Virus record (IMG/VR): IMGVR_UViG_2531839531_000009
DNA: 55,409 bases
Origin: a virus
Lineage: Duplodnaviria; Heunggongvirae; Uroviricota; Caudoviricetes
Strand: one strand, 5' to 3'
The notes below the pieces were generated by a model. It had not been told where the DNA came from. It did no database searches and saw nothing but the letters and a program-made list of their open reading frames with translations. The translations under genes were made by a program, and so were the position numbers. Positions 50,603-53,850 of the stretch are shown here, one piece after another (within the stretch, counting starts at the first letter, position 1; each line of letters opens with the position of its first letter).

Positions 50603-50667
50603 ATGTAAAAACAGCAGCTCAGTTTCGTGAGTTGCTCAAATTCAAAAATCCCGCAGGAGTATTGTGA
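50374..50667 (+). CDS. -1 frame extension of the tail assembly chaperone
   Basis: ORF in the -1 frame relative to 49985..50602, overlapping it and ending where the tape measure starts. Confidence 0.45.
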   Translation: MRLVDKFTGAGEGDYGCGQWSMEHSMLVIESYGMDRFIADIEISRQFWRDGEHVISDILDYSAGAGFRDICADSGLNVKTAAQFRELLKFKNPAGVL

Positions 50668-52397
50668 TGGCTGGTAACCAGATGCCAGTTCTGACGCTGG
50701 ATGTTAATGAAGAACATCTCAGGCGGCTTGAGGCGATATTTGAAAAGTATCGCAACGGACTGATGATTGGCCCTGCCGGTACGCCGCTTAAAATACCTTC
50801 AAATACAGGGCCGGGAGGTGGCTCTTGGCAGACAACCACAGGCGGAGAAGCCAATCAGGCTCCCAGGAAACCATCTTCACCCGCGCCAGTTCTGGCTGCT
50901 TCCACTGATGGACGTTTAAGGGATGAAAAATGGCGCTTTGTTGGCAGCGGGAAAACACCTGATTCGCTGGTGAGCAACTATAAAGGTCGCGGCGAAACGA
51001 TGTTTGATAAGTACCTCAGCGGGCTGGGGAAAAACGCCAAACAGACGCTGAAAACTTACAAGCAGATCAATTCTACGCTACGGGCGACCACTTCGAGATT
51101 AAACAACCTGTTTAAAACCACCGTATCGTGGGGGACAAAACTTGCGGTTATGGGCGTTGCAGGGCCGTTTGGCTTTGGCATGATGGCTCGTAATGTTGTA
51201 GAGAAACAGAAAAATGCTGATGAATTGCAGGCAACGCCAGGAGAGTTAAAGGCGGCAGAAAGCACTTATTCGCCTTATTTTTCCGGTGTTGGTAATTTGC
51301 TCAATACACTGGCAGCCGCGCAAAATGACACTCAGCATCCTGCCTACAACGGGCTAATTGGATTAGGGATAAATCCTAAAAAAGGGGCAGCAGAAAATCT
51401 TCCTGTATTGTTAGAAAGAGTTGCTGCTCTTGCAAAGGAGTATGAGGGAACCGGACTTACTCAGAGCATGCTCAGAGGTCGTGGCCTTGGATGGGTAAAT
51501 TTTGGTATTGCTAACCAGTTAGTCAAATATCAGGACAAAATACCTGAACTCAACAAAGAGTTTTTATCGCGAGCTTCTCAGAATGACTCGTTGCTCACCT
51601 CTGGACATACAAGCCAGTATCAGAATCTTACCAGCAACTTAGAAAATAACTGGGATCAACTTACCAGCGGATTTCAGGGGGCAATGTCGGGTAACTCTGT
51701 ACAGCTAATTAGAATATCTAATGGTGTAAAGAATGCTGGTCTAAATTTCCTTAACGGTGAGAACTTTAAAAGAATTTTGACTGATGTTGAAACAGGTCTG
51801 GATAAACTTGGTAAGTATGTAAATGGCCCGGATTTTAATAACGACCTGAATAATTTTGCCGAAAATGTTGCAAAGGTTGTTAAGGCACTTAGCGGGTTTG
51901 TTGGTTTTGCGGTTGAACATCCCTGGCTTTTTGGGGCCGCAGTACTTGCTGGACCATCGAGAGTTGGTGCTGTGGCAGCCACAACGACCGGAGTTGCCGC
52001 CCGTGTTGTTGGTGGAAGTCTTCTTGGGGCTACAGCCGGAACAGTAGCTGGATTGGCTATTCCTACAAATGACACACCTACCACCAGTGAGGAAATGAAA
52101 GGGCTGGAGGGGCGTTTCAACTTTGATTATTTTAACGAAGTGCAGGAGTGGCAAAAAAACAATCCGGGTAAGGTCTGGCCTGGAGGATTGCAGGGATTTT
52201 CAAATCAAGTAAACAGATCTGCATATTTATCCAGAGGGATCAGGAATAACAATCCCGGAAATCTTAATTTCGCAGGACAAAAAGGGGCTACCCTGGAATC
52301 GGGGCCAAATGCCCGTTTTGCCAGCTTCCCGACGATGCTGGAAGTAACCGGCTCATTTAAACCGTCTGGTCTGTTTCCTCCGGCTCTACAAAAATAA
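50664..52397 (+). CDS. tail tape measure protein
   Basis: 577 aa, Gly/Ala-rich hydrophobic segments, directly after the chaperone pair; stop lies 14 nt before the IS3-family element. Confidence 0.55.
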   Translation: MMAGNQMPVLTLDVNEEHLRRLEAIFEKYRNGLMIGPAGTPLKIPSNTGPGGGSWQTTTGGEANQAPRKPSSPAPVLAASTDGRLRDEKWRFVGSGKTPDSLVSNYKGRGETMFDKYLSGLGKNAKQTLKTYKQINSTLRATTSRLNNLFKTTVSWGTKLAVMGVAGPFGFGMMARNVVEKQKNADELQATPGELKAAESTYSPYFSGVGNLLNTLAAAQNDTQHPAYNGLIGLGINPKKGAAENLPVLLERVAALAKEYEGTGLTQSMLRGRGLGWVNFGIANQLVKYQDKIPELNKEFLSRASQNDSLLTSGHTSQYQNLTSNLENNWDQLTSGFQGAMSGNSVQLIRISNGVKNAGLNFLNGENFKRILTDVETGLDKLGKYVNGPDFNNDLNNFAENVAKVVKALSGFVGFAVEHPWLFGAAVLAGPSRVGAVAATTTGVAARVVGGSLLGATAGTVAGLAIPTNDTPTTSEEMKGLEGRFNFDYFNEVQEWQKNNPGKVWPGGLQGFSNQVNRSAYLSRGIRNNNPGNLNFAGQKGATLESGPNARFASFPTMLEVTGSFKPSGLFPPALQK

Positions 52398-52437
52398 TGT
52401 CCATCATTTTTGAACTGCGCCCCAGATCTTGGACAAC

Positions 52438-53301
52438 TTATGCAGCCTGACTCAATCGATATTGTACCGGGCTAAGACCGCCAAGTTTTTCCTTTATCCT
52501 CAATTGATTATAATAGTTTATGTAATCAATGATGTCTCGCTTTAAGTCCTCCACATTTTTATATTCATTGAGGTAATAACATTCTGATTTCAATGTTCCA
52601 AAAAAGCTCTCTATAACTGCATTATCAAGACAATTTCCCCGGCGAGACATACTCTGGACTATACCGCTATCCTTTAACCATCGTTGCCACCGGGACATCT
52701 GATATTGCCAACCTTGATCGCTGTGCAGTATGGGGTGTTCATCTTTCGACAGCTGTTTCAGCGCATCCGTAAGCATAGTCTGCACCATTGAAGGTTGAGG
52801 GCGAGTGGCGAGGTTATAGGAAATTATTTCTCCATTATAAAGATCCATGACGGGCGACAAATACAGCTTCTTGCCATTCACTTTAAATTCAGTGACATCT
52901 GTAACCCACTTCTCGTTGGGGCGTTTTGCATCAAAATTGCGTTTCAGGAGATTATCGCAAATTCGTCCTTGTTCTCCTTTATATGAACGGTATTTTTTAA
53001 CGCGGATCAGGCTGCTAATACCCAGTTCCTTCATCAGTTTTCTGACGGTTTTACCATTAAGTAAAACCCCCTCGTTACGACATGCCAGCCTGATGCGTCT
53101 GTAACCATAGCGGCCTTTGTGCTGGTGATAAATTTTCAGCACAAGCGCTCTGGCAGACTGATACCGGTCAGGAGCAGCAAGCCGTCTGACATGATAGTAA
53201 AATGTACTCCGGGGCAGCCCGGAAACAATTAACAATCGGGACAATGGCCATTCCTGCCTTAGTTCATTCACAATGCTCACTTTTTCCTGAACGTTGAGCA
53301 T
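52438..53301 (-). CDS. IS3-family transposase OrfB (DDE integrase domain)
   Basis: 287 aa; closely resembles IS150 InsK as recalled (RGRYGYRRI, EKWVTDVTEF, LYLSPVMDLYN, LHSDQGWQY, SMSRRGNCLDNAV). Confidence 0.8.
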   Translation of the reverse strand: MLNVQEKVSIVNELRQEWPLSRLLIVSGLPRSTFYYHVRRLAAPDRYQSARALVLKIYHQHKGRYGYRRIRLACRNEGVLLNGKTVRKLMKELGISSLIRVKKYRSYKGEQGRICDNLLKRNFDAKRPNEKWVTDVTEFKVNGKKLYLSPVMDLYNGEIISYNLATRPQPSMVQTMLTDALKQLSKDEHPILHSDQGWQYQMSRWQRWLKDSGIVQSMSRRGNCLDNAVIESFFGTLKSECYYLNEYKNVEDLKRDIIDYINYYNQLRIKEKLGGLSPVQYRLSQAA

Positions 53302-53783
53302 GTTTTCTGCTGAACCAAGGCTTTCAGCTTTTTTAAGTAGGCATTCTCGACCCTGAGTTGTTCAAGTTCTTCTCTCTCATCTTTGGTTAATGTTGGTAGT
53401 GGTGGTGCTGAAATGGCGCTTTTATCCGGCACAGGAATACTCTTTTTATTTTTTCGAATGAAAGCATCTTCGCCATATTTTCTATATTTTTCAAGCCAGT
53501 TGCATACAGTACCAAAGGCTGGTATTCCGTGTTTTACCGCTACTTCACGAACAGAAAAACAGTCATCCACGACTTCTTTTACTACTGTGAGTTTTAACTC
53601 AGCAGAATAGCGTCCTTTTTTACCCGTAAGTATGCTTATCCCATGTTCCCGATAGGCATAAGCCCATTTTCTTACTGTGCAGGGACTGATACCGTACATC
53701 CTTGCTACAGATTTCAGACTCAACTCTCCCTCCAGGTACTTTTCTGATACTACCTTTTTGAACTCCAATGAAAACTTTTCCAT
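53277..53783 (-). CDS. IS3-family transposase OrfA (HTH)
   Basis: 168 aa with HTH and leucine zipper (LRVENAYLKKLKALV); ends ...AGGAAAAAGTGA, overlapping the orfB start. Confidence 0.8.
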   Translation of the reverse strand: MEKFSLEFKKVVSEKYLEGELSLKSVARMYGISPCTVRKWAYAYREHGISILTGKKGRYSAELKLTVVKEVVDDCFSVREVAVKHGIPAFGTVCNWLEKYRKYGEDAFIRKNKKSIPVPDKSAISAPPLPTLTKDEREELEQLRVENAYLKKLKALVQQKTCSTFRKK

Positions 53784-53850
53784 GCATCCTCAGTTTTTGG
53801 TCTGGTGTCTAACCTTTGGGGCGCAGTTCATTTTTAATGGACACTATCGT

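Follow-up and report, generated by a model that had tools for sequence, protein, structure and literature searches.

A tape-measure-like gene in a Rac-type prophage of ETEC strain 2726800 is almost certainly interrupted by a copy of ISCro1 (IS66 family) that already carried a nested IS3-family element, with the contig ending inside tnpC of ISCro1. The window, meaning the whole stretch of 55,409 nt analysed here, makes up the final 55.4 kb of draft contig AQFE01000022.1 of assembly GCA_000356625.2. In alignment, L002, which spans positions 366831–381573 of a contig of 381,573 nt, corresponds to window positions 40667–55409, and window base 55409 is the terminal base of the contig. Contig breaks at repeats are usual in short-read assemblies; this one falls about 3 kb past the junction between the tape-measure-like gene and ISCro1. 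The assembly was produced from Illumina reads (300-bp inserts) with Celera Assembler, with a mean of 212 contigs (PMC4462620).

The prophage and its truncated tape-measure-like gene

Integration next to ttcA together with intR, xisR, ralR, recT, recE, and kilR identifies the prophage as Rac-type; within the window it extends from about 15.2 kb to position 52343. Positions 9008–32323 are 99% identical to, and colinear with, the annotated strain 214-4 region containing these genes, and the left 37 kb of the prophage matches intact relatives at 99–99.9%, colinear and with essentially no indels. The strain 214-4 prophage, 99–99.9% identical, presents the same Rac genes followed by the same head and contractile-tail module. 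Here the tail module starts with a sheath gene (48196–49533, plus strand; phrog_205 tail sheath, E 1e-54) that is 99.9% identical to its counterpart in the intact 214-4 prophage. It is followed by a gene in the tube position, two overlapping chaperone-like ORFs, and the tape-measure-like ORF. The overlapping pair (49973–50667, plus strand) consists of ORFs 49973–50602 and 50374–50667 in different frames, matching phrog_11810 and phrog_14324, whose function is unnamed; from position only, we infer that they encode tail-assembly chaperones.

The tape-measure-like ORF begins at 50664 (GTG) or 50667 (ATG) and ends at 52397 on the plus strand. Its native part, codons 1–559 of 691, occupies 50667–52343 (from 50664 with the alternative GTG) and is 99.9% colinear with positions 18668–20344 of L001, an intact relative. 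More broadly, L001 positions 1–20345 align with window positions 32000–52344 at 99.89% without indels. The intact gene encodes 691 aa and diverges from the window after 52344, the same point at which similarity to 3015 E. coli records breaks off. Accordingly, phrog_7694 is covered at profile positions 1–545 of 675 here versus 1–675 in the intact gene. The truncated ORF finishes in ISCro1 left-end sequence, which contributes its final 17 codons (VTGSFKPSGLFPPALQK) and TAA stop.

The name of the gene follows from its position: sheath, tube, and overlapping chaperone-like ORFs precede it in the window as in the intact relatives L001 and L016, where the baseplate hub comes next. Over residues 485–640 only, the intact homologue matches phrog_2276 'tail length tape measure protein' (E 7e-31), and this region also matches transglycosylase and endolysin PHROGs. 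Neither the truncated nor the intact protein gave a Pfam tape-measure match, and the database name of the protein is 'lytic transglycosylase domain-containing protein'. The conserved C-terminal domain of the intact protein, as outlined by the tape-measure and transglycosylase PHROGs, comprises residues ~485–673.

Comparison with near-identical intact prophages disclosed about 10.7 kb of distal tail genes immediately after the tape-measure-like gene. Specifically, baseplate hub, baseplate J, and fibre genes lie directly 3' of it in an intact relative and in a deposited phage genome. Phage pPE4 (record 'Actinobacillus phage vB_Apl-pPE4'), whose tape-measure-like protein is 89% identical over query residues 1–514, has the same gene order as the window and then baseplate and fibre genes. 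The protein of Escherichia phage Rac-SA53 is 57% identical over residues 2–427. Unlike its Rac-type relatives, the tail module studied here is broken at tape-measure codon 559 and nothing further is visible. Alignment to the intact prophage located no distal tail gene anywhere in the window.

The earlier note described a tail module that ends at the tape measure with no baseplate or fibre genes following. This is correct for the tape-measure position of the last gene and for the content of the window, but the ORF is truncated, with its stop supplied by ISCro1, and because the contig ends in ISCro1 the missing genes are unobserved rather than demonstrably lost. An apparent module end in a draft genome can thus be a mere contig end within a repeat. 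The defect in tail assembly proposed in that note is supported, but on other grounds. With or without surviving distal genes, the prophage very probably cannot assemble tails, because its tape-measure gene breaks off at codon 559 of 691 and has lost most of the conserved C-terminal domain. In addition, the 4.1-kb insertion would be polar on any downstream genes. The Rac-type prophage of strain 2726800 is therefore unlikely to supply virions, or tails for any satellite.

ISCro1 and the IS3-family element nested in it

The element that adjoins the gene at 52344 is ISCro1. Its left end (52344–52410, plus strand, 67 nt) starts with the terminal repeat GTAACCGGCTC and includes the tnpA start ATG at 52397. 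ISCro1 copies of L003, L017, and L018, set in unrelated flanking DNA, begin with an identical segment, and matches of the ISCro1 stretch to other genomes begin at 52343–52345. The rest of the element (53831–55409, plus strand) was delimited by alignment to the 2699-bp native ISCro1 and to a 4123-bp composite; it is cut by the contig end, leaving ~1.05 kb outside the window. On the plus strand, the remainder of tnpA extends to 54497 with a 1-nt deletion at ~54110, and an intact tnpB follows at 54497–54844 (Pfam TnpB_IS66, PF05717, E 5e-40). The third gene, tnpC, starts at 54864 and is cut by the contig end; its N-terminus equals native ISCro1 TnpC through residue 106, and a 1-nt deletion at 55183 places it out of frame from about codon 107.

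The tnpA-tnpB-tnpC order, an HTH_Tnp_1 domain in tnpA, and a left terminus beginning GTAA (GTAACCGGCTCATTTAAACC at 52344) agree with assignment to the IS66 family. The right end in relatives of this copy reads ...GACGAGTCGCTTAC, its own right end lying outside the window. The copy differs from a native one at 3 positions in 1642 nt and is 99.8% identical to genes that PGAP names 'IS66-like element ISCro1 family transposase'. Both 1-nt deletions are private, being absent from the best-matching copies of 2559 other records. ISCro1, originally catalogued from Citrobacter rodentium ICC168, shares its left terminus and gene order with the window copy, which differs in its nested IS3-family element, its private deletions in tnpA and tnpC, and a right end outside the window. 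Expansion of ISCro1, with insertion into genes and regulatory regions, is documented (PMC3072379, PMC8764528). ISCro1 is common across E. coli, where a single genome may have it at as many as 22 places. The ORF at 53677–54162 was considered as the N-terminus of an IS21-type IstA, a reading rejected because the ORF corresponds to the N-terminal half of TnpA from ISCro1.

The IS3-family element occupies 52411–53830 on the minus strand (1420 bp). It has TG...CA termini, TGAACTGCGCCCC at 52411 and GGGGCGCAGTTCA at 53830, that form imperfect inverted repeats. Its orfA (53277–53783, minus strand, 168 aa) contains HTH_28 and HTH_Tnp_1 domains, and the overlapping orfB (52438–53301, minus strand, 287 aa) contains rve (E 1e-26), rve_2, and HTH_21. 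This layout of an HTH orfA and a DDE-type rve orfB with an annotated frameshift, together with the termini and a 4-bp duplication, is that of the IS3 family. Termini, orfA/orfB layout, and duplication are common to IS3-family elements of ~1.4 kb (the IS150-like size class). Copies 99.9% identical are labelled by PGAP 'IS3 family transposase, programmed frameshift', and this element is itself labelled by PGAP only as 'IS3 family transposase'. A 42-nt inverted repeat (52394–52435/53806–53847) was rejected as the IS3 ends, its outer 17 nt on each side being the ISCro1 hairpin and flanks.

The target duplication TTTT (52407–52410 and 53831–53834) lies on both sides in ISCro1 sequence; native ISCro1 joins 52410 straight to 53835, placing the insertion point five codons into tnpA. 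The earlier note was right to call the IS3-family element apparently intact, its domains, termini, and duplication all being present. It had this element abut the tape measure, a position that belongs to ISCro1, and it placed the stop codon 14 nt away; the stop is indeed close by, 13 nt separating it from the IS3 end. The degenerate IS66-family region it saw beyond is an IS66 element with two 1-nt deletions, but the same ISCro1 that encloses the IS3-family element. Where two IS are nested, the one in contact with a gene may be the outer one and not the one most readily seen.

The stretch 52344–53900, containing the ISCro1 end and the IS3 insert, occurs in 189 other genomes in unrelated contexts, and at least 149 complete E. 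coli genomes contain the 4123-bp ISCro1::IS3 composite at loci other than this one. In the pap operon of APEC O2-211 the 4123-bp composite is bordered by the 8-bp duplication TTTATTTC, and in L003 it has GTTAAAAC on both flanks; overall, the 8-bp target duplications GTTAAAAC, TTTTTACC, and TTTATTTC flank ISCro1 copies (L003, L017). Judging from these flanks, the composite transposes as a whole at other loci and has 8-bp duplications at those checked.

Simple insertion and competing explanations

The left junction is exactly what plain transposition of a pre-formed ISCro1::IS3 composite would leave. We regard a simple insertion, with the remainder of the gene on another contig, as reasonably probable and as likelier than an IS-mediated deletion. 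The pre-formed 4.1-kb composite would have transposed as one unit into the tape-measure-like gene, producing a chimeric ORF that reads 17 codons into ISCro1 before its stop. Another contig would then probably carry the last 132 codons along with the ~10.7 kb that encodes baseplate and tail fibres, the downstream late genes being cut off from their promoter. Transposase was probably supplied in trans, since tnpA and tnpC of this copy are both frameshifted, if the deletions are real. Such an insertion into a tape-measure gene is an ordinary event.

Simple insertion predicts a specific right junction. The 8 bp at 52336–52343, TGCTGGAA, would be the target duplication and would be expected again at the right end, giving the ISCro1 end GACGAGTCGCTTAC followed by TGCTGGAA and GGCATTGCTGCC. 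The predicted 30-mer across this junction is GACGAGTCGCTTAC+TGCTGGAA+GGCATTGC, after which the gene would continue TGCTGGAAGGCATTGC... Because the ISCro1 right end and the duplication lie outside the window, simple insertion can only be inferred. Counting against it, the assembly continues through 3 kb of IS sequence before the contig breaks, an atypical pattern for a multi-copy identical repeat. Moreover, unless they are assembly errors, the private tnpA and tnpC frameshifts would be somewhat more natural in a resident copy that has decayed, or after recombination, than in an element that has just transposed on its own.

In order to find the other side of the insertion, we used the missing 132-aa C-terminus as a query, and the homologue search gave unrelated fragments only. 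By exact look-up, neither the 123-aa remainder ORF that simple insertion predicts nor any of nine versions truncated at an edge was present in a collection of 15 billion proteins. The collection does contain a control form (MLEG..., 135 aa) that starts at the ATG belonging to the gene itself; it comes from sample ERR4784096, where the gene is split but no IS is involved. The 222-aa protein encoded next downstream is listed in 4419 blocks, and the 24 of them that were read did not single out a contig of strain 2726800. Look-ups of the left-junction protein, shortened to ten positions at which a contig might end, detected no Logan short-read assembly of this strain, and the remainder-ORF negatives therefore carry little weight. 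They are weak also in that the ORF was possibly uncalled, or a SNP may differ. The 576-aa truncated protein is listed from NCBI sources only.

The main alternative is that, during insertion or later, recombination between this ISCro1 and a second copy, or an adjacent deletion by the transposase, eliminated the baseplate and fibre genes together with the 3' end of the tape-measure gene or moved them elsewhere, leaving the prophage a true remnant. This is the reading of the earlier note, and we consider it a real but lesser possibility. In its favour, the window has no distal tail gene and the predicted remainder ORFs are missing from the protein collection; private frameshifts are what a decayed or recombinant copy might carry, and the wide distribution of ISCro1 makes recombination partners plausible. 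However, nothing positive speaks for a deletion; the distal genes are unseen only since the contig ends 3 kb beyond the junction, and the left junction is that of plain transposition. The left 37 kb is colinear with intact relatives, and at the other loci examined the composite shows simple transposition with a target duplication. The truncated protein forms a cluster of one, on a single contig of strain 2726800; the gene/IS junction is absent from 5426 complete E. coli genomes, and no record covers 80% or more of 48000–55409. Confinement of the allele to this strain implies a very recent single event, which also argues against deletion.

An assembly chimera, in which the prophage was misjoined to an IS contig while the actual genome has an uninterrupted gene, is very improbable. 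The assembly is a short-read draft and two odd single-base deletions sit in the IS near the contig end, but the switch coincides precisely with the outermost ISCro1 base (G/GTAACCGG), as it would in real transposition, and gene and IS have no common repeat at that point to mislead an assembler. Insertion of the IS3-family element beside the natural end of a complete tape-measure gene, suggested by a stop codon so near the IS3 terminus, is refuted to near certainty by the ISCro1 left-end matches (the stop lies in 52344–52410, found with the IS3 insert in the 189 other genomes), by the 691-aa intact gene that continues differently past 52344, and by the TTTT duplication within ISCro1.

Target sites of the IS3-family element

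Some IS3-family elements are target-specific; IS1397 and ISKpn1 are known examples that insert in the loops of REP palindromes. Unlike these, the element in the window has as its target a hairpin within another IS. ISCro1 has a TGTCCAT...ATGGACA hairpin where tnpA starts, and the element entered the same T-run in its loop on at least two occasions, with both orientations represented. The IS3 element appears to prefer one palindromic target. That it is a target-specific 'parasite of a parasite', with 4.1-kb composites still mobile as units, has in our estimate an even chance of being correct. If true, it would offer a tractable case of structure- or sequence-directed IS3-family targeting and of a trans-mobilised nested IS, and the repeated entry into the ISCro1 hairpin could be of interest for work on IS target choice. 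The IS3 ends are identical in L020, where the element is reversed at the same ISCro1 site, and in L021, where it lies in an integrase gene with the duplication TTTA. A third site has the motif TGTCCAT-N2-TTT in common with the ISCro1 hairpin.

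The interrupted tape-measure gene and its intact relative

Positions 9008–32323 are colinear, at 99% identity, with an annotated stretch of the E. coli 214-4 chromosome that carries smrA, dgcM, zntB, dbpA and ttcA, and then the intR, xisR, ralR, recT, recE, kilR and early genes of a Rac-type prophage. Positions 32000–52344 match the remainder of the 214-4 prophage at 99.89% identity and equal length; they hold lysis genes, terminase, portal, head genes, the tail sheath gene (phrog_205, E 1e-54), a gene in the tube position, two overlapping ORFs in the chaperone position and a large gene (50667–52397). 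In 214-4 this large gene encodes 691 aa and is directly followed by ~10.7 kb of genes, among them those for a baseplate hub (phrog_196) and baseplate J (PF04865, phrog_6), two for fibres and one for fibre assembly; beyond this block lie uspF, ompN and nifJ. In the deposited genome of phage vB_Apl-pPE4, the genes follow the same order. The 214-4 distal block matched nothing anywhere in the window. The comparison with intact relatives proposed by the earlier note thus shows what follows the large gene in 214-4, but the right side of the window offers only a contig end inside an insertion sequence (IS).

The position of the large gene, 3' of the sheath, tube and chaperone-like ORFs and 5' of the hub, favors its reading as a tape measure. 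The intact protein matched phrog_2276, 'tail length tape measure protein' (E 7e-31), over residues 485–640 only, a region with further matches to the 'tail injection transglycosylase' and 'endolysin' families. A Pfam search returned nothing significant for the product, which databases name a lytic transglycosylase domain protein. The best reading is a tape measure whose C-terminal domain is of the muralytic type, the phrog_2276 match being partial. On a Logan contig of another sample (ERR4784096_183, 8334–10408), the same gene is split into 514-aa and 135-aa ORFs with no IS, either an independent lesion or a sequencing error.

Matches to 3015 E. coli records end at 52344. The intact gene reads ...CCGACGATGCTGGAAG GCATTGCTGCC... 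at the junction and the window reads ...CCGACGATGCTGGAAG TAACCGGCTCATTTAAACC...; GTAACCGGCTCATTTAAACC, the left end of ISCro1 (IS66 family), occurs with unrelated flanks at three loci with ISCro1 copies elsewhere (L003, L017, L018). Because this left end follows there, the native gene stops after codon 559 (GAA, 52341–52343). ISCro1 supplies the last 17 codons (VTGSFKPSGLFPPALQK) and the TAA stop of the truncated ORF; the final A of this stop doubles as the first base of the start codon of ISCro1 tnpA. The truncated protein has lost 132 residues through a cut inside a conserved C-terminal region, and it matches positions 1–545 of the 675 in the phrog_7694 profile, compared with 1–675 for the intact protein.

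A composite of nested insertion sequences

A native ISCro1 from L003 spans 2699 bp between 8-bp duplications. In this copy, 52410 joins 53835 directly within the palindrome TGTCCATcatttttaATGGACA, which overlaps tnpA codons 1–8. In the window, a 1420-bp IS3-family element (52411–53830) lies in the T-run of this palindrome, with termini TGAACTGCGCCCC...GGGGCGCAGTTCA, a TTTT duplication, and two minus-strand ORFs, orfA (HTH domains) and orfB (rve domain). The earlier limits of the element and the span 50664–53830 were essentially right, except that 52344–52410 is also IS DNA and had been missed. A 42-nt 'inverted repeat' (52394–52435/53806–53847) considered as the IS3 ends proved to be the IS3 repeat lengthened by the ISCro1 hairpin arms.

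The stretch 52344–53900, comprising the ISCro1 end, the IS3 element and ISCro1 again, is present in 189 complete genomes (149 with a longer query). In APEC O2-211 the whole composite, 4123 bp long, lies within the pap operon with the octamer TTTATTTC on either side, and the L003 composite is flanked by GTTAAAAC. The recurrence in other genomes and the octamer-flanked copies indicate that the composite existed beforehand and moves as one piece. The IS3 element, which the earlier note placed directly beside the tape-measure gene, therefore came inside this composite.

The exact IS3 ends recur in two further copies. One, in plasmid pAMSC2 (L020, 1441–2990), sits at the same hairpin-loop position of ISCro1 (52398–53843 in the window) in opposite orientation; its flanks are not inverted, which makes it an independent insertion. 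The reversed junction occurs in 46 genomes, against 149–189 for the window orientation. The other (L021, 1464–2983) lies in an integrase gene adjoining tRNA-Phe, after TGTCCATTGTTTA and with a TTTA duplication, its left flank being TGTCCAT-N2-TTT as at the ISCro1 site. The IS3-family element thus seems to choose its target.

Relative to native copies, the visible 1642 nt of ISCro1 show one substitution and two 1-nt deletions. The first deletion reduces A7 to A6 at about 54110 (54104–54110) and splits tnpA into ORFs 53677–54162 and 54162–54497; in the other composites examined, tnpA is open from an internal ATG. The second removes a T at 55183, kept in all best matches among 2559 records, and shifts the tnpC reading frame from about residue 107 onward. 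The tnpB gene is intact, and ~1.05 kb of ISCro1 lies beyond the contig end. With tnpA and tnpC frameshifted, the earlier description of a degenerate IS66-family region is fair; the two private deletions, both single-base length changes near a draft contig end, are either real decay, leaving a non-autonomous copy, or consensus errors.

Contig end and origin of the truncated allele

Positions 40667–55409 equal AQFE01000022.1 366831–381573 (GCA_000356625.2) base for base. Since this interval reaches the end of the 381573-nt contig, window base 55409 is its last base. Short-read assemblies break at repeats, and the source assembly is of this kind. Sahl et al. included strain 2726800, an ETEC isolate, in a study whose genomes were assembled from Illumina paired ends with 300-bp inserts using Celera Assembler (mean of 212 contigs per genome; PMC4462620). 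The contig reaches 3 kb into IS DNA (52344–55409), past the complete IS3 element and across 1.6 kb of ISCro1. Such a reach with 300-bp inserts suggests that the strain has no further identical copies of either stretch and that repeated sequence begins only near 55409.

The truncated allele is unique to strain 2726800. The 576-aa product of 50667–52397, named 'hypothetical protein EC2726800_1796 [Escherichia coli 2726800]', is the sole member of its cluster, and in a 15-billion-protein collection its exact match traces to AQFE01000022.1 only. The tape-measure/ISCro1 junction occurs in none of 5426 complete E. coli genomes searched.

The IS-mediated deletion proposed by the earlier note has to be weighed against a simple insertion, in which a pre-formed ISCro1::IS3 composite would have transposed as a unit into the tape-measure gene. 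We consider it probable that such an insertion occurred and that the remainder of the module lies on another contig, because the junction is exactly of the transposition type, mobility of the composite is demonstrated, the prophage is otherwise unaltered and the event is recent. Simple insertion predicts a right junction GACGAGTCGCTTAC/TGCTGGAA/GGCATTGC... and a 123-aa remainder ORF. This ORF and nine edge-cut variants were absent from the protein collection, as were forms of the left-junction protein cut where a short-read contig would plausibly end; the latter absence implies that a second assembly of the strain is apparently lacking, and the remainder-ORF negatives therefore mean little. 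The next protein downstream in the intact gene order (222 aa) occurs in 4419 blocks of the collection, so the strain's contig is not discernible there. Deletion or rearrangement of the distal tail genes is an alternative that we regard as less likely; in its favor, two genes of the ISCro1 copy itself appear defective, and a contig break 3 kb into an IS is an unusual pattern. An assembly artefact is very improbable.

Tail assembly in long-tailed phages depends on the tape measure. With this gene broken, loss of tail production is expected under either insertion or deletion, in keeping with the defect judged probable by the earlier note. The 4.1 kb of foreign DNA, which includes an oppositely oriented transposase gene, lies between any late genes further downstream and their promoter.

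All of the parts are of known kinds, namely ISCro1, an IS3-family element, a Rac-type prophage, gene disruption by an IS and a draft contig ending in a repeat; ISCro1 has expanded in C. rodentium and inserts into E. coli loci (PMC3072379, PMC8764528). The main value of this otherwise ordinary case lies in the corrected anatomy and in the warning against inferring deletion from a contig end.

Other genes of the module and the island at 1–9007

In the record 'Actinobacillus phage vB_Apl-pPE4' (PP818812.1), the module is ordered as in the E. coli Rac-type prophage with matching gene lengths, and the tape-measure-like protein is 89% identical over query residues 1–514; the stated host looks surprising given the E. 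coli-like sequence. Within the 214-4 baseplate module, a 'type I restriction endonuclease' gene (L001 24146–25306) sits between a 115-aa gene and baseplate J, where pPE4 has an anti-repressor and another gene; the spot appears to be a variable cargo slot. A 478-aa gene (40690–42126; L001 8691–10127) carries conflicting labels, Phage_portal_3 (PF06381) in Pfam and 'anti-CBASS protein Acb1 family protein' in RefSeq for the identical 214-4 gene.

The island at 1–9007, between smrA and abgR, is missing from strain 214-4 and complete in only 20 of the 5426 complete genomes. It looks like a capsid-encoding phage satellite, its annotations naming a RepA-type helicase, major capsid protein, small terminase, SSB and HTH regulators.
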